Below are positions 1-63,227 of a stretch of DNA of 64,000 nt, piece by piece. Below the pieces are notes generated by a model. It saw only the letters and a program-made list of their open reading frames with translations. It had not been told where the DNA came from and searched no databases. Position numbers and translations under genes: made by a program. The first letter of the stretch is position 1; each line of letters opens with the position of its first letter. Source of the stretch: a virus (lineage: Duplodnaviria > Heunggongvirae > Uroviricota > Caudoviricetes). The DNA lies in the IMG/VR virus record IMGVR_UViG_2778261571_000004; one strand, written 5' to 3'.

Positions 1-185
1 ATTATTTATTTAGGGAACACCTTCGACGATCTCGCTTTTATTTCTAGGACTTTCATCCCTGCAGAAAATTTAAAAAAAACACTTGCAATCTTTTTTCACG
101 TATTGATAATTGAACTCGTCGAAAGCGAGCTGGCTAACGACAGTAAAAAATAAATTCATTTTAATTTTTCGTAAGGATGTCCATC

Positions 186-836
186 ATGGCTAACATTATC
201 ATTTCTAAAAAATCCATCATTGAAGCTGCTGCCATTGTATCCGACGAGCTGCGCGAAAAAGCAGATCTGGCAACTCAAACATATAACGAACATTATAAAA
301 ATGGTACGCACACCAAAGCAGACAAAGCAAATATGCAAGCTGCGACCACTAAACTTGCTTACTTCATCAACAACGTCGTAAACGCAGTAGAAGACGAAAA
401 ATTATGCTCTGTTTTCTACTATGCGATTAAAGCAAGCAAACAAGCGCCAGAAGTATTTTTCCGTGATGCAATGACTAATAGTTATTCTCTGGAAAAACTG
501 GTCTATCTGGTCAAATCAATTAAAGCTGGTAAATGCGTTTATTCCATCGCTGATATGTCAGGATCTCGTGTATTCGCTTTAATCGATATGATTAACGACG
601 AGATCGACACGTTCACCAATGGCGCTGTTTTCGATTTAATGAATGAAGCGAAAAAAGCGTGTGAAATTAAATTGGACGCTGGCTATACTCAAGCCAACCA
701 GTTGATCAATCTTTGCGAACGTCTTGGACTTGTTGAAAAAGTCAAAGGAGCTGGGAGCGCGAAAGCTGGTACTCAGCAATATCGCTTTATTAAAAATGAT
801 TTCTATAACTATCTGGCTGATGCTTTCAAAGCGTAA
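186..836 (+). CDS. hypothetical protein (track ORF 177..836; second ATG has better SD spacing)
   Basis: Long ORF; AAGGA about 7 nt upstream of ATG at 186; followed by hairpin terminator. No recognisable family. Confidence 0.5.
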   Translation: MANIIISKKSIIEAAAIVSDELREKADLATQTYNEHYKNGTHTKADKANMQAATTKLAYFINNVVNAVEDEKLCSVFYYAIKASKQAPEVFFRDAMTNSYSLEKLVYLVKSIKAGKCVYSIADMSGSRVFALIDMINDEIDTFTNGAVFDLMNEAKKACEIKLDAGYTQANQLINLCERLGLVEKVKGAGSAKAGTQQYRFIKNDFYNYLADAFKA

Positions 837-845
837 TTAATGGAA

Positions 846-868
846 TCTTGCGCCCACTATGGGCGCTT
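846..868 (+). terminator. rho-independent terminator hairpin (gcgcccactatgggcgc + T-run), approximate
   Basis: GC stem-loop followed by T-run directly after stop of 186..836; same hairpin sequence recurs at about 1121..1146. Confidence 0.5.
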
Positions 869-883
869 TTAAGGAGCTTAATC

Positions 884-1114
884 ATGTTTATTCTTATCGC
901 TGGCGTTAACGTGCGCAATGAATATTTTGTTAATCGCATCGCTGGGATCGCTGGTTACGCTGGGCGCGCAGTCGAGTTCATAAATGAAACAACGCGAAAA
1001 ATTGACTTATTGAACGACCAGGAGCGAAAAAAAGCAGACGTGAATGACGCTGATATATTTTTAATGTTAAAAGCGTTTGTAGAAATGGGATTTAAAATCA
1101 GTTTACACAAATAA
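884..1114 (+). CDS. small hypothetical protein (76 aa from internal ATG of track ORF 848..1114)
   Basis: AAGGAG SD 6-7 nt upstream of ATG at 884 (Met13 of track ORF); terminator copy downstream. Confidence 0.4.
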   Translation: MFILIAGVNVRNEYFVNRIAGIAGYAGRAVEFINETTRKIDLLNDQERKKADVNDADIFLMLKAFVEMGFKISLHK

Positions 1115-1118
1115 AATC

Positions 1119-1146
1119 GAGCGCCCACTATGGGCGCTTTTTTCGT
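1119..1146 (+). terminator. rho-independent terminator, second copy of the same hairpin, approximate
   Basis: gcgcccactatgggcgc followed by tttttt. Confidence 0.5.
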
Positions 1147-1456
1147 TTCCAATACTCCCACCATAACGCGCCAATGATGGCGCTTTTTTATTGTCTTTGA
1201 CTCACTCCAACAACATAAAAATAAGCGCCAAAATAACGCCATAGACGCGCTTTTATATCCTTGTCAGTACATACCCATTACTTAACACATTAACGCGCTT
1301 AAAACGCGTTATATTGCGCTATAGAGTATGGTTAATCATTGGCTTTTAGTCTTGCTATGTGATCCGCGTTTATTTGTCGGCGCGGATCGGCTCTTTGTGT
1401 TGTTTTGTATCCGCTCGCGTATTATGTGCGCGTGATTTTTCACATAATCACACCAC

Positions 1457-1472
1457 TTAATCACATATGTGA
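1457..1472. promoter_or_regulatory. perfect 16-bp palindrome AATCACATATGTGATT in intergenic region (candidate operator), approximate
   Basis: Read directly; lies in a 585-bp ORF-free region with further inverted repeats (gatccgcg...cgcggatc). Confidence 0.35.
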
Positions 1473-1564
1473 TTACGCTACGAAAGAAATCTGGATGTCT
1501 CAGGCGACGAAAGTCATCATAATTTTCCCCGCTCACCTGTCCGACAACCGCTGGTTGGATTCCA

Positions 1565-1640
1565 CCAGCTTCCCGATGTTTTTTCTACATAAAGGCGAAT
1601 GCAGCCGTTTCCCGAAAAAATCCTGGCCGTTCCCCCGTCG
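1565..1640. repeat. direct repeats of motif AGCCGTTTCCCGAAAA-like (about 3 copies), approximate
   Basis: Same unit as the 6-copy array at about 5569..5700. Confidence 0.4.
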
Positions 1641-1730
1641 GCTCATGAATACGTTCCTCGCCGCTTCTGAAAATTTCCCTGCGGCAGCTGGTGGCTATAG
1701 AGAAAGGGCCGTTTCTGGCCCTCTTCTCAG

Positions 1731-2213
1731 TTACACGCCATCAAGGATGTGGATGCGGTTGCTTGCGTATACATTCAGCATAAAGTTAGCGCAAAACAGT
1801 TTCCATGTATCAACGCCAGCGGTATACGTAATGTTTTTGCATTTAATCGCATTGTTGGCGATCCGCATCCCCTGCGATACTGCTTCATCGTCGGAAAATT
1901 TGAACGACGATTGAGTTTTAATCCAGACAGAAATCTGCGTAGCGAACTCAATCAGCTTGGACTGGCAGAATCGCCCGGAGCGCACCGGAAAGACGAACGT
2001 TCCGAATCCAGAATTTACCACATACGCTTTCTCAAATACCCGCGAGTAACGACGATTGCAAATGATGTCGCGTGCAATAATGCATTTTTCTTGTGCTGAC
2101 AGTTCTACCGTCTCATTGTCGCGCCATGCACCAAGTACTCGTTTTTCAATGTCAGAGAACGTTACAGCGATATTGCCATGTGCGGGTGCGTTTACAGTAG
2201 CGATAAAATTCAT
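1731..2213 (-). CDS. hypothetical protein
   Basis: 160-aa ORF with AAGGA SD; motif-1 palindrome just upstream. Confidence 0.5.
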   Translation of the reverse strand: MNFIATVNAPAHGNIAVTFSDIEKRVLGAWRDNETVELSAQEKCIIARDIICNRRYSRVFEKAYVVNSGFGTFVFPVRSGRFCQSKLIEFATQISVWIKTQSSFKFSDDEAVSQGMRIANNAIKCKNITYTAGVDTWKLFCANFMLNVYASNRIHILDGV

Positions 2214-2232
2214 GATTAATTCCTTATCGTAA

Positions 2233-2249
2233 ATAACAAATTGTTTTCT
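2233..2249 (-). promoter_or_regulatory. motif-1 palindrome (AACAAATTGTTTT) upstream of 1731..2213, approximate
   Basis: Member of recurrent AAACAA-N-TTGTTT family; TTGACG-17-TAATTA sigma70-like elements lie just upstream in transcript sense. Confidence 0.45.
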
Positions 2250-2299
2250 TGTTGGTGTTAATTATCGTTGTACGAATAAGGCGTCAAAGTAGAAAGTTA

Positions 2300-2360
2300 C
2301 GGTAGCCGGACGGGAACAGGTGGGTTTGTCGGTTGCCTGGAGGTAAGAGGTTGGTGTTTT
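2300..2360. repeat. about 62-bp element shared with 6308..6370 (cggtagcc...aagaggttggtgtttt), approximate
   Basis: Two loci align over about 60 nt with an internal tandem half-repeat. Confidence 0.4.
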
Positions 2361-2418
2361 TAGCCTGCGGTAAACAGGATGGTCATTTAAGGCCACCAGC
2401 GTAAACTGGTGGCGTTTG

Positions 2419-3117
2419 TCATGCTGGAATCATATCTAATTGAAAAGATTCCATTATATATGTTGGTTCATCGATGTAGTCCTTCAGCCTATTGTCAAAT
2501 GACTCAAGCGGATTGTGTGGCGGATGATACCAGTCCGAGTATTCATTTAAAAAATGACCCATTATCAGTTCGATACCCACCTTTACTCCTGCAACTCCGA
2601 ACCATGCATTGTGCGTTAGTTGCTGGGCGTCTGTATCCAGTACGCGAATGCCATCAACAAGCTTTATTAGATTCCTGTGGTTTTCGTGTACTGTAACCTC
2701 TCCGCTGGTTAAGTCTATTTCAGCGAGAAAATATGGTCTTTTGCTTCCGTCGGACTTTTTGAAATGACAGTCATAAGCGACAGCAAACCACGCTTTACTA
2801 AAGTCTTTGTTGGCGTAAGTGGTACACATGCAACTAGGATAATCATCAATGTTAAACCAATCAGGAAGCGGATCATCTTTAGACGAGCCAGCAAAATCAT
2901 CAGCTAGTTTGTAGTTAATGTCTGGGTTGTACTTGCTGACAAAATCATCCACATCCTCTACATCCTCAACACCTTTCCAAACTTTACATTTCTCCGACCA
3001 AAAGAATCTCGCAATATCCGAAATGACTGGGAAACGTTTTTCAATTGAATTTATCAACTCTGCATGTTCTTTAAGAGATTTACGCTTGTTGATAAGCTTC
3101 TGAAGATGCGTACTCAT
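2419..3117 (-). CDS. hypothetical protein
   Basis: 232-aa ORF, GAGGA SD upstream of ATG. Confidence 0.55.
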   Translation of the reverse strand: MSTHLQKLINKRKSLKEHAELINSIEKRFPVISDIARFFWSEKCKVWKGVEDVEDVDDFVSKYNPDINYKLADDFAGSSKDDPLPDWFNIDDYPSCMCTTYANKDFSKAWFAVAYDCHFKKSDGSKRPYFLAEIDLTSGEVTVHENHRNLIKLVDGIRVLDTDAQQLTHNAWFGVAGVKVGIELIMGHFLNEYSDWYHPPHNPLESFDNRLKDYIDEPTYIMESFQLDMIPA

Positions 3118-3400
3118 TTTTAATTCCTCGTTTGTTTTCGATGTGATAATTATCGCTGAATGAAATAGGCTAAAAAGAAGATTTATAAGGCTACTATCTG
3201 GAAGTAAGGCAAAGTGTTGTCATTTAAGGCCACCAATGCTGATGGCCTTAATAATTATCGCCCGATTACGCTAAGGATCTTTTCCTCAACTGATTTGTTG
3301 TTGCGACTAAACTGCCTTGCGTATCTGATGACAGAAGAGGCGTTTCGCTTTCTGACCATCTCGGCTCTTTCCTTCAGGCGTTTCTTGAAATCGCCCATAT

Positions 3401-3775
3401 TTACCACCAGGCGCAAAACGTCAGTCTGTTATTGTGAAAGTCGTGGTTCTTAATCAGGTCTTCCACAAGCTCTTTCAACTCCCCCACATCATGCCAGTAA
3501 CCTTCATCGTACTCCTGACTGCCGAAGAAAAAACCTTCCCGGGTAGGCAAGTACTCTTCGCAATTACTTTCGTTTATGTGCATCAAATGAGCCTTCAGAA
3601 AACAAATGTCATTCATCGTTAATTCTAAAAGCTCACAATTTTCGACTTCACCTACGTTGCGCTCCATCCACCCAACGAGCGCATTGAACTTACGGAAGTA
3701 AGCAACCCGCTTTCTGGATGCCTCATTATTCAGATCGTTTTTTGGCTGCGTCTCGATGTAGATATCAAGTCCCAT
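3401..3775 (-). CDS. hypothetical protein (start moved to Met15 of track ORF 3401..3817)
   Basis: AAGGAAA SD precedes Met15; the track start is a GTG without SD. Confidence 0.45.
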   Translation of the reverse strand: MGLDIYIETQPKNDLNNEASRKRVAYFRKFNALVGWMERNVGEVENCELLELTMNDICFLKAHLMHINESNCEEYLPTREGFFFGSQEYDEGYWHDVGELKELVEDLIKNHDFHNNRLTFCAWW

Positions 3776-3858
3776 GATGGTTTCCTTATTAAGTTGCTTC
3801 AGTGAAATCATTTTCACAAATCAGATAAGGCAGAAAACAAATTGTTATCGGGCATAAT

Positions 3859-3883
3859 AAAATGGCGCGGTTTGCGCGCCATT
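3859..3883 (-). terminator. hairpin terminator (aaatggcgcg..cgcgccattt) after gene 3893..4288, approximate
   Basis: 10-bp GC-rich stem followed by T-rich run in minus sense. Confidence 0.5.
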
Positions 3884-3892
3884 TAAAGAGGA

Positions 3893-4288
3893 TTAAGCGA
3901 ATACGCTTTCAGGGATTAAGGTGTCGGCAGGAATGCCAGAGGTAATGCGCAGACCGTACTGGCCAATCCAGGTGGTGCTGGTGTTCAGGCTGGAGGCGAA
4001 TACGGTGTTAACCATATTCATCATGGTTTCAAACACCTCTTCATCAACCTGGCGGAAGTAGTTCTCGATTTTCAGCAGCAGCGGGTCAGTTGCATCGAGA
4101 ATGGACTGGTATTGAGTCGCGTACTCGCCGTCGGAGTCATCACCTTTACGCACGATCGTACTGGCCTGTACTTCGGCGCCAGTTTCGGTGTTGTACGTAA
4201 CAACGGTGATTTTTGCCACATTCTTACCTTCGGCGGTTTCAGAGGCATAGTAAACATCAACTGTCAGTTTTTCGCGTTTAATGGTCAT
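3893..4288 (-). CDS. hypothetical protein (start at Met23 of track ORF 3893..4354)
   Basis: GGAGAG SD before Met23; motif-2 palindrome and an upstream-gene terminator precede it. Confidence 0.5.
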   Translation of the reverse strand: MTIKREKLTVDVYYASETAEGKNVAKITVVTYNTETGAEVQASTIVRKGDDSDGEYATQYQSILDATDPLLLKIENYFRQVDEEVFETMMNMVNTVFASSLNTSTTWIGQYGLRITSGIPADTLIPESVFA

Positions 4289-4325
4289 TTCACTCTCCGT
4301 AGTGTATTGGTTATTTTTATATTCT

Positions 4326-4344
4326 ATGATCGTAAGTATGTACT
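4326..4344 (-). promoter_or_regulatory. motif-2 palindrome (GTAAGTA-tg-TACTTAC), approximate
   Basis: Inverted repeat between a terminator and the SD of gene 3893..4288. Confidence 0.4.
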
Positions 4345-4414
4345 TACAATACAAAAAAGCCCCGTAAGGATGGCGGGGCTGTCGTACGGTCGACTAATTA
4401 CCACTTGCACATTA

Positions 4415-4726
4415 TCAGGCTATTGCCATCACTGATGCTCTCTGAATCTCTTGCTGGGCCACGCGGTTAACTTCCATCAAAGCCAGTTCGAGCTGATGTT
4501 CCGGCCACATTCTTTGAAATGCCACCCAGCCTTTTCCACGCTGGCGACGAACATTCATTACATAACGAGTAAAGGTGTTTTTATCGAAAGACACCGCTGT
4601 TTCACGGAACAGACGAATAGAGGTTCCATTGGCAACGATGTCCAGCAAAGTTAATTGAGCAACCAGCGCAGGCTTCTCTTTTCTCTTCTGGTCTTTGTCC
4701 AGACCAAGAACCAATGATTTTTTCAT
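4415..4726 (-). CDS. hypothetical protein (start at Met17 of track ORF)
   Basis: GGAG SD before Met17; motif-1 palindrome about 12 nt upstream. Confidence 0.45.
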   Translation of the reverse strand: MKKSLVLGLDKDQKRKEKPALVAQLTLLDIVANGTSIRLFRETAVSFDKNTFTRYVMNVRRQRGKGWVAFQRMWPEHQLELALMEVNRVAQQEIQRASVMAIA

Positions 4727-4736
4727 CACAACTCCG

Positions 4737-4753
4737 TAAACAACTTGTTTTCT
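4737..4753 (-). promoter_or_regulatory. motif-1 palindrome (AAACAACTTGTTTTC), approximate
   Basis: Recurrent motif immediately 5' of SD. Confidence 0.45.
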
Positions 4754-4879
4754 CAATGGCGTAAATAATACCAATAAGAAAACGGCTACAAAGCATAATG
4801 ATCAGGTGCATGAGCGATATGCAGGTTCCTCCCTGCGGCTATAGAGAAATTAAGCCAGCAATGCTGGCTTTGGTTGGGA

Positions 4880-5209
4880 TTACGCGAATACCTCAAGAAA
4901 CTCCTGAACGTCCCAATGCTGGACGAGGTGAAGATAGACCTTAGAAATCACGTCATTTTCGCTATCGCATGTGAAGTAGTACTTCTGGCTGCGGTTGTAT
5001 GTGTCCACACAAAATTCGCTCATATCCATAAAGTCAGCATCTTCACCCATGTCGCAAATCATCAAAGCAGGTGCGTCATCACGAGTCATCAGCTCAAGCA
5101 CCCACCGCGAATTAATCAGAGTGGAAGACCAACCTTCTAACTCATAAAACTGATCAAACTCTTTTTGAGTTAATTTCTTAATTTGGTTGATGTCGATATT
5201 TGCAAACAT
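4880..5209 (-). CDS. hypothetical protein (start at Met8 of track ORF)
   Basis: AAGGAT SD before Met8; motif-1 about 13 nt upstream. Confidence 0.45.
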   Translation of the reverse strand: MFANIDINQIKKLTQKEFDQFYELEGWSSTLINSRWVLELMTRDDAPALMICDMGEDADFMDMSEFCVDTYNRSQKYYFTCDSENDVISKVYLHLVQHWDVQEFLEVFA

Positions 5210-7876: not shown

Positions 7877-9910
7877 TTACTTAACCTGGTGGCCAGGTTT
7901 AGCACCGACATCCGGGCTTAACAGGAAGATATCTTTCCCGCCAGGGCCAGCAGCCATCACCATGCCTTCGGAGATACCGAAGCGCATTTTACGCGGAGCC
8001 AGGTTAGCCACCATAATGGTGTGACGACCAATCAGTGCCTGTGGGTCTGGATAAGCAGAACGGATGCCTGAGAAGACATTGCGTTTTTCACCGCCGAGAT
8101 CCAGTGTCAGACGCAGCAGCTTGTCAGAACCTTCAACAAACTCTGCGTTTTCGATCAGCGCCACGCGCAGGTCAACTTTGGCGAAGTCGTCAAAGGTGAT
8201 GGTTTCCTGAATCGGGTCGTCAGCCAGTGGGCCAGTTACCGGTGCGGCTGTGGCTTTCACTTCTTCTTTGGATGCTTCCACCAGTGCTTCCACCTGTTTC
8301 ATATCGATACGGTTATACAGTGCCTTGAACGGATTCACTTTATGGCCCAGCAGCGGTTGCTGGATACCATCCCAGGTCAGTTCTGTATTCAGGAATGCTT
8401 CTGCACGTTCAGTCAGTTTCGGCAGTACCGGCTTCAGGTACGTCATCAGCACGCGGAACAGGTTAATGCCCATAGAGCAAATCGCCTGCAGATCGGCATC
8501 GCGTCCTTCCTGCTTCGCCACCACCCACGGAGCCTGTTCATCGACATAGCGGTTAGCCAGGTCAGCCAATGCCATGATTTCACGGATAGCTTTACCAAAT
8601 TCGCGGCTTTCCCATGCTTCGCCAATCACTTCAGCGGCATCAGTAAAGGTTTTGTACAGTTGCGGGTCAGCCAGTTCGTTTGCCAGCACGCCGTCAAAAC
8701 GCTTGTTGATAAAGCCTGCATTACGGGAGGCCAGGTTAACCACTTTGTTCACGATATCGGCATTCACGCGCTGAACGAAATCCTCCAGGTTGAGATCGAT
8801 ATCATCAATGCGCGAAGAGAGTTTCGCAGTGTAGTAGTAACGCAGGCTGTCAGCGTCAAAATGATTCAGCCAGGTGCTGGCTTTAATAAAGGTGCCGCGA
8901 GACTTGGACATCTTCGCGCCGTTCACCGTCACATAGCCATGAACAAACAGGTTGGTCGGCTTGCGGAAGTTGCTGCCTTCCAGCATGGCAGGCCAGAACA
9001 GGCTGTGGAAGTAAACGATATCTTTACCGATGAAGTGGTACAGCTCGGCGGTGGAGTCTTTCTTCCAGTATTCATCGAAGCTGGTGGTATCGCCGCGCTT
9101 GTCGCACAGATTCTTGAAGGAACCCATGTAGCCAATCGGCGCGTCCAGCCAGACGTAGAAATATTTGCCCGGCGCGTCCGGAATTTCAAAACCGAAGTAA
9201 GGCGCATCGCGGGAGATATCCCACTGTTGCAGGCCAGATTCAAACCACTCCTGCATTTTGTTTGCCACCTGCTCCTGCAACGCGCCGCTGCGGGTCCATG
9301 CCTGCAACATTTCGCTGAAAGAAGGCAGATCAAAGAAGAAGTGTTCGGAATCACGCATTACCGGGGTAGCGCCAGAAACCACCGATTTCGGCTCGATCAA
9401 TTCAGTCGGGCTATATGTTGCGCCGCAGACTTCACAGTTATCGCCGTATTGATCTGGCGCTTTACATTTCGGGCAGGTGCCTTTTACAAAACGATCCGGC
9501 AGGAACATGCCTTTTTCCGGGTCGTACAACTGAGAGATAGTGCGGTTTTTAATAAAACCGTTCTCTTTCAGGCGAGTATAGATAAGCTCAGACAACTGAC
9601 GGTTCTCTTCGCTGTGCGTCGAGTGATAGTTGTCATAGCTGATGTTAAAGCCTGCGAAATCAGTCTGGTGTTCCTGACTCATTTCGCCAATCATCTGTTC
9701 CGGTGTGATACCAAGCTGCTGTGCTTTCAGCATGATCGGCGTACCGTGGGCATCGTCGGCACAGATGAAATTAACCTCGTGGCCGCGCATTCGCTGGTAA
9801 CGAACCCAGACATCAGCCTGGATGTGCTCCAGCATATGGCCGAGGTGGATTGAGCCGTTAGCGTACGGCAGCGCGCACGTCACCAGAATTTTCTTCGCGA
9901 CTTGGGTCAT
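7877..9910 (-). CDS. metG: methionine--tRNA ligase
   Basis: 677-aa product from Met44 of the track ORF; near-identical over its length to enterobacterial MetG as I recall it (HLGH and KMSKS class-I motifs, CPKC..CEVCG zinc knuckles). Confidence 0.95.
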
Positions 9911-11205: not shown

Positions 11206-11595
11206 CTACATCACGGGACAATCATCAAACTCGCCACTTCTTGCGTCGTTGATAATGTGAGTGATCACACCAAACACGGCATTGCTGCCCGTGCATCCAT
11301 CGTCATCCTTTGGCAATGCTTCCTTCTTACCGGTTCTTAAATCCTCCAGATGCTGACGTGGGTACTTCCGGTATCTTTTTACGCGATATTCCCCATCCAG
11401 AGCGCATACAAGCAGAGAACCATCAACCGGGGTAAGTGAGGAATCGACCACCAGCAATGCACCCTGTAATATTCCCTCACGATGATGACTATCAGCTGCC
11501 CTCATGAAGTAGGTCGCTGAAGGATGTCTAATTATCTGCTGATCAAGAGAAATACGGCTCTCAGCATAATCCGCCGCAGGAGAAGGGAAGCCCAT
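11206..11595 (-). CDS. UmuD'-like S24 peptidase-family protein that begins at the UmuD autocleavage site (no N-terminal arm)
   Basis: Starts M-GFPSPAADY, matching UmuD from Gly25 onward; Ser (ADSHH) and Lys (VKRYRK) of the S24 dyad are present; an in-frame stop lies 4 codons upstream of the ATG. Confidence 0.7.
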   Translation of the reverse strand: MGFPSPAADYAESRISLDQQIIRHPSATYFMRAADSHHREGILQGALLVVDSSLTPVDGSLLVCALDGEYRVKRYRKYPRQHLEDLRTGKKEALPKDDDGCTGSNAVFGVITHIINDARSGEFDDCPVM

Positions 11596-11613: not shown

Positions 11614-11633
11614 TACTGTTTATCCATACAGTA
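11614..11633 (-). promoter_or_regulatory. LexA (SOS) box TACTGTATGGATAAACAGTA upstream of the UmuD'-like gene, approximate
   Basis: Perfect CTGT-N8-ACAG about 20 nt 5' of the GAGGTGA SD. Confidence 0.65.
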
Positions 11634-22798: not shown

Positions 22799-22943
22799 GT
22801 GGACTCCATCCAGTGTCAGAAAGAGTTGCGGCTGGCGATTGCCAGCCGCCTTTCTCGTTCCATCCTGGAACTGTGTCTTACCGACACATTGTCATCCTGA
22901 CGCTGATAAGATACATGATTTAAAATGATAGGTAAACACTTAC

Positions 22944-23537
22944 TTACCACTTGTTATAAACAAAACCAATATCTTTCTTGTGAGGCATATCTGCTGCTGA
23001 AAAAGCTGCGATCTTCGCGAGTCGATCACATATTTCATTTTCACGATGCCCGGCGTGACCTTTAACCCACTTCCAGCGAACATTATGTCGACTTGCGGCC
23101 TCATCCAGACGCTTCCACAGATCAACATTCTTTACCGGTTTTTTGTCAGAAGTCATCCATCCATTGCGTTTCCACCATTTCATCCACTGTGTCATGCCGT
23201 TTTTCAGATACTGGCTATCAGAGTGCAAAATAACGTTGCATGGATATTTCAAACGCTCCAGCCCGATAAGTGCGCCCATCATCTCCATGCGGTTATTGGT
23301 GGTGCTATGAAAACCATCTGAGAACTCGCGTTCCTCACCACGATACTGGAGAACGATACCGTAACCGCCCGGGCCACCCGGATTTTTAAGGCAAGAGCCA
23401 TCACTAAAGATTTTCACGGTTTTGAGCTGGGGATTGAACTCTACGACAGGCGTTGTGGGATTGGTGCGGGGAGAATTTTTGTTTTTGGCTTTTTTGCGAG
23501 TTTTTGCTTGCGATCGGGCTGGTGTCTTCGTCGTCAT
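22944..23537 (-). CDS. rnhA: ribonuclease HI with lysine-rich N-terminal extension
   Basis: DGSC..GPGGYG..TNNRMEL..HSDSQY..VKGHAGH..NE.CD motifs as in bacterial RNase HI; AGGAG SD before Met18 of the track ORF. Confidence 0.8.
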
Positions 23538-25140: not shown

Positions 25141-25160
25141 ATAGGTAAGTGATTACCTAT
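25141..25160 (-). promoter_or_regulatory. motif-2 palindrome (ATAGGTAAG-tg-aTTACCTAT) upstream of Dam-family gene, approximate
   Basis: Inverted repeat about 12 nt 5' of the start. Confidence 0.4.
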
Positions 25161-34695: not shown

Positions 34696-34715
34696 AGATA
34701 AGTACTTACCTATCA
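34696..34715 (-). promoter_or_regulatory. motif-2 palindrome (GATAGGTAAGTACTTATC) upstream of nrdA, approximate
   Basis: Followed in transcript sense by hairpin gggccact..agtggccc. Confidence 0.4.
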
Positions 34716-53900: not shown

Positions 53901-54407
53901 CGCTGTAATCAGTGTGCTTATGATTTTTGCAAAATCGTTGCGTTGGAACACGCTACCGATGTCGGAAGTAAGCAGGATGATGTTGCCTTTGGCATATGTA
54001 GAAACCAACTGTTCGAGCGAGAGACGCGGTACAAAGTAGAACTGTTCTCGTGTGTTGGCCACCGTCATTAGTTCGCAGATGTCGCGATATCCTTGCTCAT
54101 TTTTAATTAGAGCGGTAAATGAGTAGTTACGTCCCCGCTCTAATGATTCCATACATCTCATAGATTCTTTAGCAAGTTTAGCCCGGTGCTCGTATGTGGG
54201 ATCATCAACAATGTTTAGTTTCACACCACAAATAACCGCCATGTCGTCACCAGCGGCACGTTGTAGTGGAATAACGCTCGCAATATTCATGCTATCTGCT
54301 GAAATTACAGCGGTGTAGCCAGCTTCTCTGGCAATCTTCACCGCGTTTTCTGCTTTTAGAGCCGACTCCCCAAGTGAGAAGTCAGTTCGAACCATCAGTG
54401 CCTTCAT
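50901..54407 (-). CDS. dnaE: DNA polymerase III alpha subunit homolog (DnaE-type, PHP domain)
   Basis: 1168 aa; Pol III alpha signature GRGSSAGSLVAWCIGIT and PHP N-terminus. Confidence 0.9.
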   Translation of the reverse strand: MKALMVRTDFSLGESALKAENAVKIAREAGYTAVISADSMNIASVIPLQRAAGDDMAVICGVKLNIVDDPTYEHRAKLAKESMRCMESLERGRNYSFTALIKNEQGYRDICELMTVANTREQFYFVPRLSLEQLVSTYAKGNIILLTSDIGSVFQRNDFAKIISTLITAGGKDNFYSVVYPHPTPFYDQINVRAMKVASALKIEPVAFYPAYYESIDDADIKDIAHMVTNNIKIDQPHRLRIPHQRDNAINGRRHLLEALKAFSVRMDVPVTAAMASTTQDSIIDACTWRWHELPPALPKMADDEPATLMKLAVAGLRKRLTTKEFGYTPPASENRVYVERLKYEMNTLTRLGFCGYFLMVRDLMNHSRETGIPVGPGRGSSAGSLVAWCIGITNVDPIRHGLLFERFINPERLDLPDADLDFSQARRHEVIEYLNERYGEDYVAGIPNFTYLGAASALRDTARIYGVESADMAVSKELKNVEDDSLPLEELREQLASLDKYATKYPDAFNAACKLQSLMRGFGRHAAGMIVAGVPLTERTPVERRGDARCIAFDKRYCEAMGLIKLDVLGLATLDLLDSAKRYIKENTGEDINLDAISLEDRKVLDGFAAGYTQGVFQLESGPMRKLLKDLGGGIEPMSFKTVVATTALFRPGPIQSGMLDDYVSVAKGFMAPHSIHPRLEEVTRETNGVLLYQEQIMQSSRVLAGFSMAEADALRSAIGKKNMDKMKAIGSDFVERAQAGWVTLSLKNGGTVEVHKHAKLDCSDGKRRSYSEAISDGIDYVEIVSEQEGLSKEKAQEIWDAFEKFGGYAFNKSHSVAYSLISYQSMWLKTHYPAEFFAAALTILGEDKHQGLVKDALTYGIRVLPPDVNVSSNRIEIRTLEDGSQALYAPFSAVKGCSENGCQAIMRAREKVGGKFESVAQFDEAVEKRACNSRVRESLHKVGAFASIEPGSLPATDPERLRDQAELMGNLIIDAVKASRPFEMNPKRSAEINVLMTRMAAEMGLGEELIRPTIGIKPKIMIILDNANGNDARTGYFMENGYDDFKAKLLTVGDLRMGDLYVTGVCKKVKDKEKDYTKDEIGQFTDFIREEINLVRPTYILTCGSRSTALFNNKSKPSDLIGRKEYFPELDATVFYGFNPNILYFRPEEGERLEAILADIAETINK

Positions 54408-58126: not shown

Positions 58127-58339
58127 TTAACAGATTCTGACGGCTAAAGACCCGGAGCCGGTATTGAGAAGCGTGAAGCGTTTGTTGTTAAGTTCGAATA
58201 TAAATCCAGTTGTGTCATTCACACCAACCTGAATCTGCTCATTCGGTAGATCGGTGAGGATGTCAGCTACACACTCATCAGCTAATTTCTGTACGTGTCC
58301 GATCTCAAGAGCGATTAGGCTGGAAATAGTGGTGTTCAT
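58127..58339 (-). CDS. small hypothetical protein (70 aa)
   Basis: Divergent from HTH regulator; weak SD. Confidence 0.3.
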   Translation of the reverse strand: MNTTISSLIALEIGHVQKLADECVADILTDLPNEQIQVGVNDTTGFIFELNNKRFTLLNTGSGSLAVRIC

Positions 58340-58545
58340 TCAATCAATCCATTCTAACTTATACTATGGTAAGGAATACTACTAAAATTTGTATCAATAC
58401 TGAATACATTCATATCATATGCAAGTTGATTTTCTTACCTGTTTTGGGCTAATTTTTCTCCGTGCAATGGCCTTTAACCGGTCTTTTAAGTGCCTATCGA
58501 AAAAAATGATAATAGCTTTACAACCCTAACCTTTGATGTAATATC

Positions 58546-58561
58546 GGTAAGCACTTACCAG
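58546..58561 (+). promoter_or_regulatory. motif-2 palindrome (GGTAAG-ca-CTTACC) about 30 nt upstream of the HTH regulator gene, approximate
   Basis: Perfect 6-bp arms. Confidence 0.45.
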
Positions 58562-58590
58562 AGAGAATTGAACGCGCAAAGGTTGTAACC

Positions 58591-58977
58591 ATGTCTGATA
58601 ACAAGATTGAATTTATAGAAAGTCGCTACGCTGCTTTTATCGCAGGGTTGATTGAATCCTCACCTATGAGCCAGGCCCAGATAGCCAAAACAATTGGGTA
58701 TAAAAACGCCAACAACCTTTCTTTAATTAAAAGCGGCAAAATTCCTTTGCCTATCGATAAGGTTCGTCCGCTGGCGCTGGCACTGGGTATTGAGCCAAGT
58801 CGTCTTATGATGATGGTGCTGGAAGAACGCCAACCTGAACTCGCAGCATTTTTATACAAAGAAGGCACCGCTCCTCTTAACGAGGACGAAAAACAGGTTC
58901 TTGCTGCATATAACGAGCGATTCGGTAAAGAGAAAGGCGCATCACAAAAGGTTGTTGAGGCCATAAAGTCTCTATGA
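58591..58977 (+). CDS. HTH (XRE-family) transcriptional regulator, repressor-like
   Basis: SQAQIAKTIGYKNANNLSLIKSGK helix-turn-helix; plus-strand, convergent with integrase. Confidence 0.6.
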   Translation: MSDNKIEFIESRYAAFIAGLIESSPMSQAQIAKTIGYKNANNLSLIKSGKIPLPIDKVRPLALALGIEPSRLMMMVLEERQPELAAFLYKEGTAPLNEDEKQVLAAYNERFGKEKGASQKVVEAIKSL

Positions 58978-60075
58978 AAAATTTACACGAATAAGCTCTG
59001 TTGATAGACGATCTCCCTTAAATTTGTGGTCAATTTCGTCTAAATCCGGTTGCTCTACGATTGATGCGATGTACGTCGAGAAACTTTCTAAGGCGTCTCG
59101 CATCTCGTCCATATAATCGTGCCGGTCGTAGACCCGATCTATCCCCTCAAGACTGTGGTTCATGATTTTACGTGATACCTCCTGGCTTATGCCTAATGCT
59201 GGGAAGTAACTACGCGCAGTACGGCGCAAATCTCGGGGTGTAAATGGCTCAAGCTCCATCAGTTCTGGTCGTTCCAGAATACGACGTAATGCCTGGGCTA
59301 TTGCCACTTTAGACATAGGAAGGTCTTTCCCGATTTTTTTATTCGAAGGCACGAGCCACTGGCTGTCTTTACCATATTCGAACAACTCTTCAATACAAGT
59401 GCGCATTAATGAGCTTAAAGGCAGAGAATGCTCACGGGCAGATTTGTTCCTCTTGCCTTGATTCCAAACCCCACGCTTAAGATTGAACTCACTTTTTTTA
59501 GCCCGCAGTACTTCGTCAGGTCGTCTTGCGGATACAAGACATAGCCTGGCAGCCCATTTTGTACCAGCACACACATTGAAGTAGTCCCATATATTCCAGA
59601 ACACCCATACCTCTGCGTCGGTCAGCTTCCGCTCGCGAGGTGTGGGCTTTGCGCCACCGGCAACTTTGTTAAGTGACATATCGTTTAACGGTGACACGTC
59701 TATCATCCCCTGGAAGGCGCACCAGCTAAGGAACTGCTTCATCAGAGAGAAAACGCGGCGGCCCATAACAATTTTGCCATCCAGTATTAGTGGGTTGACC
59801 AGTTGGTTCACCATGAACCTATTAATGTCACTTACTTTTACATCGGCAATGTGCGGCAAAACATGTATCAAAATACAATGAACAGCGATCTCTGGCCGAC
59901 GTCTGGTTATCAGCAGAGATAAGCGAGTGAATAACATGAATGCGTCCGAGAATCTCATGTCATTGCTAACCTGCGAGATCATAACGGCCTGCATTTGAGA
60001 TGCTCTTTCGAGATACTCTATCGCCTCTTTTGAGGTGTTCTCCGCAGCGCGTGCTCTGTCAAAGCTATTTTTCAT
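58972..60075 (-). CDS. tyrosine recombinase / integrase
   Basis: C-terminal catalytic blocks (ARRPDE, RDLRRTA, NHS, VYDRHDY). Confidence 0.65.
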   Translation of the reverse strand: MKNSFDRARAAENTSKEAIEYLERASQMQAVMISQVSNDMRFSDAFMLFTRLSLLITRRRPEIAVHCILIHVLPHIADVKVSDINRFMVNQLVNPLILDGKIVMGRRVFSLMKQFLSWCAFQGMIDVSPLNDMSLNKVAGGAKPTPRERKLTDAEVWVFWNIWDYFNVCAGTKWAARLCLVSARRPDEVLRAKKSEFNLKRGVWNQGKRNKSAREHSLPLSSLMRTCIEELFEYGKDSQWLVPSNKKIGKDLPMSKVAIAQALRRILERPELMELEPFTPRDLRRTARSYFPALGISQEVSRKIMNHSLEGIDRVYDRHDYMDEMRDALESFSTYIASIVEQPDLDEIDHKFKGDRLSTELIRVNFS

Positions 60076-60171
60076 ATGACAATCACCGAGTTACGCCGAT
60101 GCACTGTATAAGTAAACAGTATATTAGGCATAGATTCTTATAGGATCAAGAGTAAAAGTAACTCATTTTCA

Positions 60172-60206
60172 GCAATGATTCCATACATAGTAGGTATGGA
60201 ATCATT
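60172..60206. promoter_or_regulatory. perfect 12-bp-arm palindrome ATGATTCCATAC-N7-GTATGGAATCAT upstream of integrase, approximate
   Basis: Half-site ATGTATGGAATCATTT recurs at about 61987..62007 and 62997..63017. Confidence 0.4.
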
Positions 60207-60285
60207 TTGACGTTGTTTTTTGAATTTTAAGGGAAACGGGAGTGAGTTTGGTGGGAATAAAAACGGCTCCTGTGAGCCGTTAAAA

Positions 60286-60531
60286 TCAGAGGGTGCTGAC
60301 GTATGCAGCCAGTTCTGTGTATCCGCCAATCGGCTGGCCATCGATCAGCACTTGGGGGATAGTCTCTACCGGTTTACCAACAATTTCACTTAGTTTTTCC
60401 TTGTCGATACCGGCAGTGGTGATGTCGATGTACTCATAATCACCGTAGCCATGTCCCTTTAGTTGCTTCGCCAGCTCGACCGCACGTTTGCAGTATGAGC
60501 AGTTATCTCGTCCGTAGATAGTGATCGTCAT
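60286..60531 (-). CDS. glutaredoxin (phage NrdC-like)
   Basis: CSYC active site, PQVLIDGQPIGGY glutathione-binding-type motif; ATGA coupling with upstream gene. Confidence 0.75.
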   Translation of the reverse strand: MTITIYGRDNCSYCKRAVELAKQLKGHGYGDYEYIDITTAGIDKEKLSEIVGKPVETIPQVLIDGQPIGGYTELAAYVSTL

Positions 60532-60878
60532 TGCTTTGCCTCATGCCACTTTTGCTTCAGGAGATAGCCTTCCAGGGGCCAGATTTGATCGATAGCATCT
60601 TTTCGAGCGTACTCGCGACCAACATCAAAGTTGAAGATTTCTGGTCTTACGCACGCAGATTTTCCCGTTACGGTATATCCATTTTTGAGAACCATAACGC
60701 AGAACGTTAAGAGTTTTAACGACTCATGACATTTGTCGATATCTGTTTTTGAATTGTAAACGGAGATGAAGTTATCCCCGTGGCTGGCATCATATGCAGT
60801 GAAATAATGTTCACTTTGAATGAGTTGTTCAATGTGTTCAGGGGTGACTTTTAGTGGTGTGTTATCTTTGCTGGTCAT
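60528..60878 (-). CDS. hypothetical protein (116 aa)
   Basis: AGGAAG SD. Confidence 0.5.
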   Translation of the reverse strand: MTSKDNTPLKVTPEHIEQLIQSEHYFTAYDASHGDNFISVYNSKTDIDKCHESLKLLTFCVMVLKNGYTVTGKSACVRPEIFNFDVGREYARKDAIDQIWPLEGYLLKQKWHEAKQ

Positions 60879-60921
60879 TATTTCTTCCTACAAAGTTCGT
60901 AGACTTGACTCTTTCAGTTGC

Positions 60922-60950
60922 AAAAAAGGGGCCGAAGCCCCTTTGAATTT
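60922..60950. terminator. hairpin terminator (ggggcc gaa gcccc flanked by A-run and T-run), approximate
   Basis: Direct reading. Confidence 0.5.
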
Positions 60951-61100
60951 TGCGCTGAAAAAAAGTGTTGCTAGGATGTTAGCAAGCTATGGTTAAGAAC
61001 GTCTGCCGTAATTGTCTATCACAGCGTTGAGCGGTCTGGTTTATGTTAGCGGAGTCTTAATCTGGGTGATTAAAAGGCCAAACCGCTCAACGCTGTGTCT

Positions 61101-61186
61101 GGCGGAGAGTAATGGAATCGAACCATCATCGCTTGCGCAATGGGACGGTTTTCAAGACCGCTTGAGCACCATGCTCCCTACTCTCC
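61101..61186 (-). tRNA. tRNA-Ser (anticodon UGA), type II with long variable arm, approximate
   Basis: GGTTCGATTCC T-loop, CUUGAAA anticodon loop, 7-bp acceptor pairing, encoded CCA; hand-folded. Confidence 0.55.
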
Positions 61187-61550
61187 GGCCGTTGTGGTGG
61201 CCGGTACTGAATCTCCGGCATACGGTGCAGCCAATTAGGACTACGGACGATCACCGCTCGCGAAAGGGAAGATTTGCGGCCGCATTTCCCTAACATCCAA
61301 GAAAGCTATCGCATCAGTCTGCGAATCCACCACAACGGTAAGATCACTACCTTTCGACCAGTCATTGTGCACATGAACGACGATTAACCGTAATGATCTT
61401 ATCGTTGTGTTGTGAAGCCAGATGCTTATCTTCTGGTTGCTTCAAAGAGCTGCACTTCCTCACAACGGTAAGAGCACTGGTCTGACTCTATCGATTTACG
61501 GGCTTGTGGGTCAGTATCGCCGATTCGCCCAATGCTCTTACCTGTTGTGT

Positions 61551-61626
61551 TGGTGCCGGTTAACGGGATCGAACCGCTGACATCCTGCTTACAAGGCAGA
61601 CGCTCTACCAACTGAGCTAAACCGGC
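61551..61626 (-). tRNA. tRNA-Thr (anticodon UGU), approximate
   Basis: GCCGGTT acceptor, D-arm GCTCAGTTGGTAGAGC, anticodon loop CUUGUAA, GGTTCGATCC, CCA. Confidence 0.65.
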
Positions 61627-61630
61627 AATT

Positions 61631-61717
61631 TGGTGGGGAGTGATGGAGTCGAACCACCCGAGTCGCAATGACAGTAGATTTACAGTCTACCCCGCTGCCC
61701 CTACGGACTAACTCCCC
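61631..61717 (-). tRNA. tRNA-Tyr (anticodon GUA), type II, approximate
   Basis: Anticodon loop CUGUAAA, long variable arm, GGTTCGACTCC, CCA. Confidence 0.6.
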
Positions 61718-61722
61718 TAAAT

Positions 61723-61797
61723 TGGCGATGGTGGGTGGATTCGAACCACCGACCAGTTGGTTAACAGCCAACTGCTCTACCGCTGAGCTACACCATC
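61723..61797 (-). tRNA. tRNA-Asn (anticodon GUU), approximate
   Basis: GATGGTG acceptor, GCTCAGCGGTAGAGC D-arm, anticodon loop CUGUUAA, GGTTCGAATCC, CCA; sequence differs from E. coli tRNA-Asn as I recall it. Confidence 0.7.
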
Positions 61798-62546
61798 AAT
61801 TCAGCACTGCCAGTATTTATTACTCAACAGTGCCAATCGCGACGGTTTAGTTTCTGCCAGGAAACGCACCGCTACTTGCACTTTTCGTTAGTGCCAGACG
61901 CTTTCGACTTCGCTCAATAGTAGAAGGCAAAATCTTTAAGTAGATGATGTTTCTGAGGACAGCACCTACTTTGTAATTTATACAATGTGATGTATGGAAT
62001 CATTTGTTGTGAAAACAGGCACCAATGGCAACAGTGGTTAAACCTACACAACAATCCTGTCTTCACAACGTTGAGGCCACTACTCCGATTGAATGTTTGC
62101 CCAACATGTTACATATCAACGCTCGCCGGTATCTCTGTGAATAGAACCTTAGAATTGATAAAAATGTAATGGCCTCAACGTTGTGTGCTGGCTAACCATA
62201 CCAGCCGGGCTACGTCGCCGCTTTTTAACCCAGTATAAACGACATAATTGAACAAAATGACGTAACAGGATGGGCGGTCAGTGGCTAAGAATCCGGGAGT
62301 CATATGGAGTTGAAAATATACCAACCGCCCATTCTGTTACTTCATCGGAGGGAACATGAATGTTCCCTCCTGCGTTCTGCAATCACACTCGCTCAGTGTG
62401 TCCCATTTCGGTAACGAGGCTGGAAACTGACCTCGCTGGTGTTTGGCTTATTAGGCTACTGCCAGATAGACTTCTTCGTTTGCACTTGTATTTAAGTTCA
62501 AACAGTCGCGTCTCAACGAAAACAAAGTCATCTTATATATAAAAGA

Positions 62547-62866: not shown

Positions 62867-63011
62867 TTTCTAACCTTTGTTTCATGAACTACCCGATACA
62901 CACGCTTTCCGATGCACAGTGTTTTGGTTTTAAGTTCCTGCTTAATTAAATCACGACAGATGCCGAAGCCGATAAGGAAGCCACCCATAAAAGCTAATGA
63001 GATGTATGGAA

Positions 63012-63227
63012 TCATTTTAACGCTCCTGATTCTACTAATTGCTGTAGCAATACTTTCCCTTTATCAGTTAACTGGTAGTTGGCCGAACACCACGTTTCAG
63101 AAACGTTTGCAACCAACCCTAACCGCTCTAACTTAGCTCGCGTTTTAGGCTTCCAGTACTCAGGGAACTCCGGCCACTTACTTATTTCATGAAGCGTTTC
63201 TTTCTCCCGTTTACTTAATACGATCAT
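63012..63227 (-). CDS. small hypothetical protein (71 aa)
   Basis: ATGA coupling with ligase stop. Confidence 0.45.
   Translation of the reverse strand: MIVLSKREKETLHEISKWPEFPEYWKPKTRAKLERLGLVANVSETWCSANYQLTDKGKVLLQQLVESGALK

Follow-up and report, generated by a model that had tools for sequence, protein, structure and literature searches.

A probable multimer-resolution recombinase and its candidate site in SSU5-type phage-plasmids of Escherichia coli

Introduction

In the plasmid prophage P1, the tyrosine recombinase Cre acts with loxP, a single site of two 13-bp arms around a short asymmetric spacer upstream of the gene, and its presumed role is multimer resolution for stable low-copy inheritance. 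ResD/rfsF of F, Rsd/crs of the Salmonella virulence plasmid, and XerCD at cer or psi also pair a recombinase with a cis site on a large low-copy replicon. Here, we describe a comparable locus at positions 58127 to 61797 of a 64,000-nucleotide stretch of viral DNA (Caudoviricetes; IMG/VR record IMGVR_UViG_2778261571_000004), which in its full length is called the window below. The window is an SSU5-supergroup (SSU5/pHCM2/pMT1-type) phage-plasmid of E. coli; Escherichia phage Cyrano (pLF82) is 98.5% identical to it, and many 95- to 120-kb nonmobilizable IncFIB plasmids of E. coli are ~99% identical. The locus encodes a 367-amino-acid tyrosine recombinase, Int (58972..60075, minus strand), and carries a 13-7-13 dyad (60174..60206) 98 bp upstream of the int ATG. 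We consider it likely that Int and the dyad form a Cre/loxP-like multimer-resolution module under SOS control, beside the lysogeny repressor. This reading is built on what is observed: the int gene and the dyad, which strictly co-occur and co-vary, their extrachromosomal distribution, a conserved LexA box, and published expression.

SSU5-type phage-plasmids, including pHCM2 of Salmonella Typhi and pMT1 of Yersinia pestis, are among the commonest extrachromosomal elements of Enterobacterales, and ~4 to 5% of complete E. coli genomes (252/5,426) have such an element. In the literature searched, the tyrosine recombinase of this group is listed as a “persistent gene” and nothing more, and phage-plasmids are said typically to lack integrases. 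In the same literature, we found no characterization of integrase function for SSU5, pHCM2, or pMT1, nor the dyad site, its two specificity classes, or SOS control of int; a search with the site sequence returned only unrelated primers. A probable site, two specificity classes, lineage-specific spacers, and putative LexA control together give a testable account of how these elements may be maintained as monomers. Should the two Int/site classes prove active, they would offer candidates for orthogonal recombination tools not related to Cre.

The locus resembles Cre/loxP in the layout of the site and in its presumed role. Unlike Cre, however, Int is predicted to be LexA controlled and has no detectable sequence relation to Cre; its site has a spacer of 7 bp rather than 8, with a degenerate accessory motif on one side. 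The Cre promoter contains a GATC site, as does that of int. Compared with ResD, Rsd, and XerCD, Int belongs to another protein lineage, and unlike Xer it is plasmid encoded; the accessory stretch beside its dyad may recall the accessory sequences of cer and psi. We take the dyad arms to be unlike those of dif or cer, dif being 11-6-11 against the 7-bp spacer here. Integrases of the P4, CP4-57, and SXT type are the nearest relatives outside the family (26 to 34% identity) and have in common with Int the core-binding and catalytic domains and the motifs D-L-R-R-T and Y-D-R-H-D-Y. Unlike the P4 type, Int has ~45 helical residues in place of the arm-binding domain (PF13356), and its element is without integrated copies, a tRNA-derived attP, or an annotated adjoining Xis. 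The integron IntI/attI pair is similar in its LexA-repressed tyrosine recombinase gene, its primary site immediately upstream, and the variable cargo beyond. In contrast to the integron, there are no attC hairpins and no cassette array here, the cargo is not bounded by sites, and IntI is a distant structural match.

The recombinase

Int matches PF00589 (Phage_integrase; E = 2.9e-10) with 40.6 bits against a cutoff of 27.1, as well as phrog_1 and, weakly, PF22022. An all-helical N terminus precedes the core-binding and catalytic domains, and the AlphaFold2 model has a predicted local distance difference test score (pLDDT) of 86. With PF00589 and this modeled two-domain fold, Int belongs to the tyrosine recombinase superfamily. 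A phmmer search of the PDB gave nothing at E ≤ 1, and profile and fold searches were needed. The top Foldseek match was residues 75 to 356 of lambda Int (E = 2e-7), followed by Tn1549 Int, XerA, XerH, and IntI (E = 1e-4); Cre came at E ~ 1e-2, and the phi3T repressor SroF was listed at low rank. Xer proteins were weaker matches than lambda Int by both structure and profile, and Cre was absent among the profile matches at E ≤ 0.1. Since lambda Int is the best match, Xer weaker, and Cre much weaker, Int is not a homologue of Xer or Cre.

The family is a tight group with at least 44% identity. In its alignment, the putative catalytic residues R185, K211, R284, H307, and Y316 show little or no variation, the full invariants being R185, D282-L-R-R285, and Y316; in the profile alignment, Y316 pairs with Y342 of lambda Int. 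The next homologues are 26 to 34% identical and have the P4-type arm-binding domain PF13356. This domain is absent in all 113 family members listed, and its position is occupied by the ~45 helical residues. Int is a lambda/P4-branch integrase that lost its arm-binding domain and became a “simple” recombinase.

The dyad

The candidate recombination core site reads AATGATTCCATAC-ATAGTAG-GTATGGAATCATT; its 13-bp arms are perfect inverted repeats, and the 7-bp spacer between them is asymmetric. The full dyad is unique in the window (0 expected by chance) and in the entire Cyrano genome. In relatives whose int DNA is 72 to 76% identical, both arms were unchanged and the spacer was different: CTATTAA in pMT1 and pHCM2, TTGGTAG in Klebsiella, TTGTAAG in pCUVET18, and TCTATAG in the Klebsiella ozaenae type.

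Using one genome per GTDB species, we collected 59 loci with a family member 45 to 86% identical to Int. All 59 have an 11-7-11 dyad, 55 to 254 bp before the start of the int match. The arms fall into two classes: class A, TGATTCCATAC, occurs in the SSU5 supergroup, and class B, TGACTCCAGAC, occurs in megaplasmids and in phage-plasmids of Xenorhabdus, Morganella, and Photorhabdus. The same two changes distinguish the classes in both arms, so that the differences are symmetric and compensatory. The spacer of the GTDB loci is always 7 bp, with the consensus YTAWTAR in either orientation. Over all 138 sites, the spacer length is 7 bp and the arms co-vary with the protein clade.

In a scan of metagenome contigs, the class-A dyad was found in 79 stretches, all from contigs no longer than 121 kb. 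The start of int is 46 to 102 bp from the dyad in 73 of these; the remaining 6 dyads lie ≤123 bp from an end of the stored stretch, where int adjacency is untestable. Among the 73 testable stretches, there was no int-free copy of the dyad, and in these metagenome copies the spacer type tracks the Int lineage. About 50 megaplasmid loci have int and the dyad with no phage genes around, which implies that the pair behaves as a self-contained plasmid module. Taken together, the strict adjacency, the co-variation of arms and protein, the fixed spacer, and the independence from phage genes are the signature of a core site, the replicon’s own.

As a side observation, contig OKSH01000027.1 (120,785 bp) has two int-site pairs (82.6% and 85.6% Int identity) whose spacers are TTGGTAG and TTGTAAG. 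Two phage-plasmids are joined in this contig, either as a cointegrate or through chimeric assembly.

Probable SOS control of int

A LexA box, CACTGTATAAGTAAACAGTA (TACTGTTTACTTATACAGTG on the int strand), lies at 60102..60121, directly after the −10 element and overlapping the int promoter. This putative promoter (60121..60149, minus strand) consists of a −35 element TTGATC (60149..60144), a 17-nucleotide (nt) spacer, and a −10 element TAATAT (60126..60121). We call it putative because its score, 8/12, is under the cutoff of the scanning tool; it is kept in class-A relatives as GGTTGATC ... CCTAATATACTG. The pattern CTGT-N8-ACAG has only three matches in the 64 kb. TACTG-N10-CAGTA is kept at −46/−47 of the int ATG in class-A relatives with a variable center, and the LexA box of the K. 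ozaenae type is at −22. CTG-N10-CAG is kept in all class-A loci listed, with a Buttiauxella copy (L022) reading TGCTG..CAGAA at −45. A GATC Dam site (60144-60147) falls within the int −35 element and is kept in class-A relatives, and a gene for an adenine methyltransferase is present on the element.

A second strong LexA box, TACTGTTTATCCATACAGTA, is found at 11614-11633, just upstream of an open reading frame (ORF) for a 129-amino-acid S24 peptidase (UmuD/LexA-like; 11206..11595, minus strand), whose Cyrano orthologue is CYRAN_98. Published RNA sequencing of LF82/Cyrano gives log2 values for five conditions (S1 Table, PMC9928086). The values for int are 5.6 in lysogeny broth (LB), 7.9 and 6.1 after 1 h and 6 h in medium, and 8.9 and 10.3 after 1 h and 6 h in macrophages; those for CYRAN_98 are 7.2, 9.7, 9.1, 11.3, and 12.2 (PMC9928086). 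Thus, between LB and macrophages at 6 h, int rises ~25-fold, in parallel with CYRAN_98 (~30-fold). Neighbors barely move over the same comparison (MinD, 6.5 to 5.9; MetRS, 4.0 to 3.1; DnaE, 3.3 to 4.5), and macrophages are an SOS-inducing environment for LF82 (PMC9928086). The expression pattern of int is consistent with LexA control and falls short of proof.

Proposed mechanism

Cyrano is an SSU5-like phage-plasmid kept at ~5.5 copies per cell; it makes virions, and ciprofloxacin induces it 39-fold (PMC9928086). RepA, ParA, ParB, phage structural genes, and MetRS are all encoded by its 108-kb genome, and no second site-specific recombinase is annotated there. The “plasmid-type replicon” of an earlier note on this DNA was therefore correct and incomplete, as the element, close to Cyrano and the IncFIB plasmids, is a phage-plasmid.

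We propose that homologous recombination between sister copies of such a low-copy replicon would produce head-to-tail dimers. Int would bind the dyad 98 bp upstream of its gene and pair the directly repeated copies in the dimer. Strand exchange across the asymmetric 7-bp spacer would then give monomers for ParAB segregation, as with Cre/loxP in P1. Since the arm-binding domain was lost, Int, of P4/lambda-type descent, would use a simple site together with a short degenerate accessory sequence beside its int-distal arm. Lineage-specific spacers should block fusion of related elements that reside in the same cell. In the phage-plasmid clade, host LexA would repress the int promoter, so that lysogens would contain little Int until DNA damage, which raises recombination and triggers induction, increases its production. 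The convergent helix-turn-helix (HTH) gene would be the lysogeny repressor, with its own promoter and operator and functionally separate from recombination, and the tRNA genes would be phage cargo in an operon of their own. A dimer-resolution recombinase had been an alternative in the earlier note, and it is the one that the evidence favors.

Cargo beside the dyad

The far side of the dyad is variable. A degenerate distal accessory motif (60207..60235) comprises a T-tract and then GAATTTTAAG; its family consensus on the int strand is CAGATTTCA, an A-rich stretch, and GCRTC. This loosely conserved motif is found 8 to 30 nt outside the distal arm in class A and class B alike, although the flanks are otherwise unrelated. 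A variable cargo slot extends from the dyad to the 3′ end of the glutaredoxin gene grx (60225..60307). In the window, it is empty except for the grx terminator (60262-60281, minus strand). The slot holds CYRAN_43, a strongly expressed moron, in Cyrano; a YafO toxin pair in pRM9975-1; and colicin immunity plus YafO in Klebsiella. In pMT1 of Y. pestis CO92 (1-5000), the slot contains the capsule (F1) operon caf1R, caf1M, caf1A, caf1, and the dyad begins ~630 bp after the end of caf1. The region beyond the dyad is thus a defined hotspot of virulence and defense cargo.

These flanks bear on an alternative in which SOS-triggered Int mainly swaps or captures adjacent cargo at the dyad, as a one-site integron-like platform, with dimer resolution secondary. 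When loci of one spacer lineage are compared, the int-side 50 nt group into a single cluster (n = 20 to 21), whereas the far-side 50 nt fall into 5 to 6 unrelated ones, each with its own version of the distal motif. Elements that are 98 to 99% identical lose their similarity abruptly at the outer end of the distal arm. Both observations suit cargo exchange, as do the morons, toxin-antitoxin genes, colicin immunity, and caf1 operon in the slot; Guerin et al. 2009 are said to have found integron integrases to be LexA controlled, a parallel to int. However, there is no second site flanking the cargo, as simple circle integration would leave, and there is no attC-like array. A conserved site beside any permissive region also shows a sharp boundary without a role in acquisition, and the class-B megaplasmid copies have no LexA boxes. 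Far-side variability can come either from exchange between elements at the spacer or from a conserved site that abuts a permissive region. We regard cargo exchange as the main function as unlikely. Quite unlikely, too, in our judgment, is that the dyad is where SSU5-type phage-plasmids cross over under stress and so swap or gain adjacent accessory DNA, with the solitary 14-mers described next as further Int-binding elements that organize or regulate the region.

Solitary half-sites

Single arms occur near the dyad as AATGATTCCATAC+ATC. One is at 61989..62004 (minus strand; exact 13-mer at 61992), upstream of the tRNA operon, and relatives keep the 11-mer and ATC at this same position. Another, at 63001..63016 (minus strand; exact 13-mer at 63004), overlaps the start codon of an ORF for 50 amino acids. 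The third, at 54142..54157 (plus strand), is inside dnaE on the antisense strand, shares a 20-mer with that at 63001-63016, and is kept in SSU5 and in relatives of 72 to 86% identity. Relatives have another solitary copy inside int. Since no second arm stands beside the solitary half-sites at a spacing of 6 to 8 bp, they are not full recombination sites.

Another reading, which we judge improbable, takes the dyad and half-sites as operators and Int as mainly a DNA-binding regulator, comparable to SPbeta-like recombinase-fold repressors, or takes the palindrome as just a hairpin or terminator. The arm 13-mer has five exact copies, all clustered in 9 kb around int, and the 108-kb Cyrano genome has no others. 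The solitary copies keep the 14-mer TGATTCCATACATC across lineages, in three different reading frames, and all point toward the dyad. These facts speak for operators, as do the low-ranked Foldseek match to SroF and an Arg in place of a His in the H-x-x-R motif. On the other hand, the nucleophilic Tyr and the R, K, R, and H residues are kept across the family, and the 7-bp spacer of the 138 sites with arms that co-vary by clade is what one would expect of a recombinase core site rather than of a terminator; besides, a canonical terminator is present ahead of the dyad. Megaplasmid members have a single dyad and no solitary half-sites, which are confined to class-A phage-plasmids. They persist in SSU5, which is without Int, so another factor may bind them.

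Distribution and integration

The earlier note had suggested that the element might integrate, with tRNA genes as attachment targets, and that this would bear on the cargo next to metG. We searched 5,426 complete E. coli genomes and found the int region at 255 places in 252 of them, every one on a plasmid and 0/255 chromosomal. Int proteins of at least 80% amino acid identity occur in ~790 PLSDB plasmids from Klebsiella, Escherichia, Enterobacter, Yersinia, and Salmonella, with 86% identity in pMT1 and 84.5% in pHCM2. The exact Int protein also occurs on large contigs (0.2- to 1-Mb blocks), and the contexts examined for it were those on 100-kb plasmids. All 59 GTDB loci are on contigs of ≤905 kb. 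The named records among them are plasmids, such as megaplasmids of Pantoea, Rahnella, and Erwinia, and contigs of ~100 to 110 kb hold family members in Xenorhabdus, Morganella, Kluyvera, and Yersinia. No family member of at least 45% identity was on a megabase contig in the GTDB species set, where megabase matches were ≤32% identical. The search for integrated copies in related genomes, which the earlier note had proposed, thus came back empty. That note had set against integration a recombinase that clusters with Xer or resolvase-type proteins and has no integrated copies; the second part stands, but the protein belongs to the lambda/P4 branch instead.

It is highly improbable that Int is a true integrase that uses the dyad region as attP for insertion into a chromosomal attB, perhaps a tRNA gene, and for excision, given the chromosomal absence above, the int gene beside 73/73 testable metagenomic sites, the lack of any near-perfect copy of the dyad in the E. 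coli chromosomes, the missing arm-binding domain, and a spacer that varies between close lineages, which is hard to reconcile with a shared attB. In favor of an integrase are its lambda/P4 descent; the remaining Int homologues in the phage collection, which are integrases of chromosomal prophages (22 to 30% identity); SOS-induced expression, which would suit excision; the report of rare chromosomal phage-plasmid-like regions (PMC12977533); and one relative whose int is among metabolic genes on a 905-kb contig. No Xis-like gene is annotated adjoining int in Cyrano, the neighbors of int being the HTH regulator, an ORF for 70 amino acids with no Pfam family, and grx.

Integration at tRNA genes was considered and rejected. 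E. coli genomes match the tRNA cluster DNA at 776 places, 767 on plasmids and 9 on chromosomes, and the int-upstream region is chromosomal in none. What integrative elements have in attP is a piece of a host tRNA, rather than a tRNA operon of their own. The tRNA genes of the window are complete and phage type, with no close likeness to host tRNA genes. Nor does the cargo next to metG connect with the recombinase, as there is no dyad or half-site near metG. On this evidence, the element is not integrative, and it should not be treated as such.

Evidence against dimer resolution

Several points weigh against a dimer-resolution module. We infer both Int catalysis at the dyad and dimer resolution as the selected function from sequence comparison. 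Int is related to Cre and Xer only at the superfamily level, and its relatives outside the family are true integrases; the first His of H-x-x-R is Arg (R281) family-wide. LexA repression is unusual for a resolution enzyme, for which constitutive expression would be expected, and it would fit induction or gene capture equally well; class-B loci have no LexA box. Simple dimer resolution leaves the solitary half-sites unexplained. A Biostraticola relative on a 905-kb contig has int among metabolic or housekeeping-type genes and might be chromosomal. Finally, the searches for the dyad in chromosomes, made with the int-upstream region, and in metagenomes reached near-perfect copies, so that a degenerate attB may have gone undetected.

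The HTH regulator

The recombinase convergent with an XRE-family regulator and the tRNA genes, as described in the earlier note, were all confirmed. The regulator (58591..58977, plus strand; 128 amino acids; phrog_8, E = 1.3e-11) overlaps the int ORF by 6 bp. It is XRE/cI-like, has no S24 peptidase domain, and matches the Pfam family HTH_19 under the family cutoff (19.7 versus 30.2 bits). It is CYRAN_45 of Cyrano, annotated as “putative repressor” and considered the master repressor by the Cyrano authors, with transcription 10 times the background in the lysogen (PMC9928086). We believe that the regulator is probably the lysogeny repressor. Because it lacks the S24 domain, induction by DNA damage or SOS sensing must be indirect, and because the repressor has no cleavage domain, the S24-peptidase ORF/CYRAN_98 is a candidate link between SOS and induction.

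Its promoter (58517-58544, plus strand; TTTACA-16-TAATAT) is the only sigma-70-like match of the scan in 57.9 to 62.5 kb. A palindrome, GGTAAGCACTTACC (58546-58559, plus strand), follows directly and is a candidate operator. Promoter and palindrome are both kept in pMT1, pHCM2, and the Klebsiella and Citrobacter relatives. Palindromes of the GGTAAGNNCTTACC type occur in four intergenic regions (22931-22944, 25144-25157, 34697-34710, and 58546-58559), of which those at 22931, 25144, and 34697 are upstream of minus-strand genes. They are candidate dispersed operators, which would recall the scattered C1 operators of P1.

A terminator-like hairpin lies inside the repressor gene (58735-58751) on the minus strand, that of int. 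From its position, SOS-induced int transcripts may extend into the repressor gene in antisense orientation and stop after crossing its 3′ half, which could be transcriptional interference with the repressor.

Neighboring genes

The ORF for 70 amino acids (58127..58339, minus strand; phrog_2627, E = 8.8e-41), with its end at 58127, is divergent from the regulator and heads a leftward operon with CobT-like, MoxR-like AAA ATPase, and DnaE genes. It is beside the regulator in relatives as well, and its transcript in Cyrano goes up ~88-fold in macrophages. On the other side of int are grx (60286..60531, minus strand; PF00462) and a gp49-family gene (60528..60878, minus strand; PF13876). Both belong to the variable accessory content that separates the dyad from the tRNA operon, and some relatives lack them or have other genes instead. 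The recombinase had been placed next to the tRNA genes; these are present, but the two accessory genes intervene, so the adjacency is not immediate.

SSU5 itself (NC_018843), the phage that names the group, is without the 70-amino-acid ORF, the regulator, int, the dyad, grx, and the gp49-family gene. At 8528-8691 of this genome, tRNA-Asn comes directly after the cobT-like gene. SSU5 seems to have lost the lysogeny and maintenance block by deletion, and the absence of the block implies that it is dispensable for lytic growth.

The tRNA operon and its hairpins

ARAGORN and Rfam identified four tRNA genes, all on the minus strand, with Rfam scores of 40 to 75 bits: tRNA-Ser(UGA) (61100-61186), tRNA-Thr(UGU) (61551-61626), tRNA-Tyr(GUA) (61631-61717), and tRNA-Asn(GUU) (61723-61797). 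The operon runs Asn-Tyr-Thr-(365 bp)-Ser and ends at a terminator (60923-60946, minus strand), GGGGC-TTCG-GCCCC followed by a T-run. The genes are 82 to 89% identical to those of P1, P7, and D6, and they are ordinary phage cargo in their own operon, not host attachment targets. Across 65% of its length, the Ser-Thr spacer matches P7 at 97.5% and D6 at 96.6% identity, which suggests a recent exchange between the P1 and SSU5 phage-plasmid families.

Six very stable long hairpins lie among the tRNA genes (61020-61097, 61328-61412, 61461-61548, 62006-62069, 62064-62185, and 62257-62345), with stems of up to 20 bp and folding z-scores of −3 to −10. Five of the six share the termini CACA(A/G)CG...CG(T/C)TGTG, and the one at 62257-62345 differs in sequence. 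In an Rfam search of 57.9 to 64 kb, only the four tRNAs passed and the long hairpins matched no family. We considered the CACAACG...CGTTGTG hairpins as attC sites and rejected them; their stems are perfect 20-mers with no extrahelical bases, and they fit RYYYAAC/GTTRRRY poorly. For the hairpin family, possible identities are processing hairpins of the RNase III type and small mobile palindromes. The number of hairpin copies between tRNA-Ser and tRNA-Thr differs among close relatives, being 0 in Cyrano, 1 in pRM9975-1, and 2 in the window.

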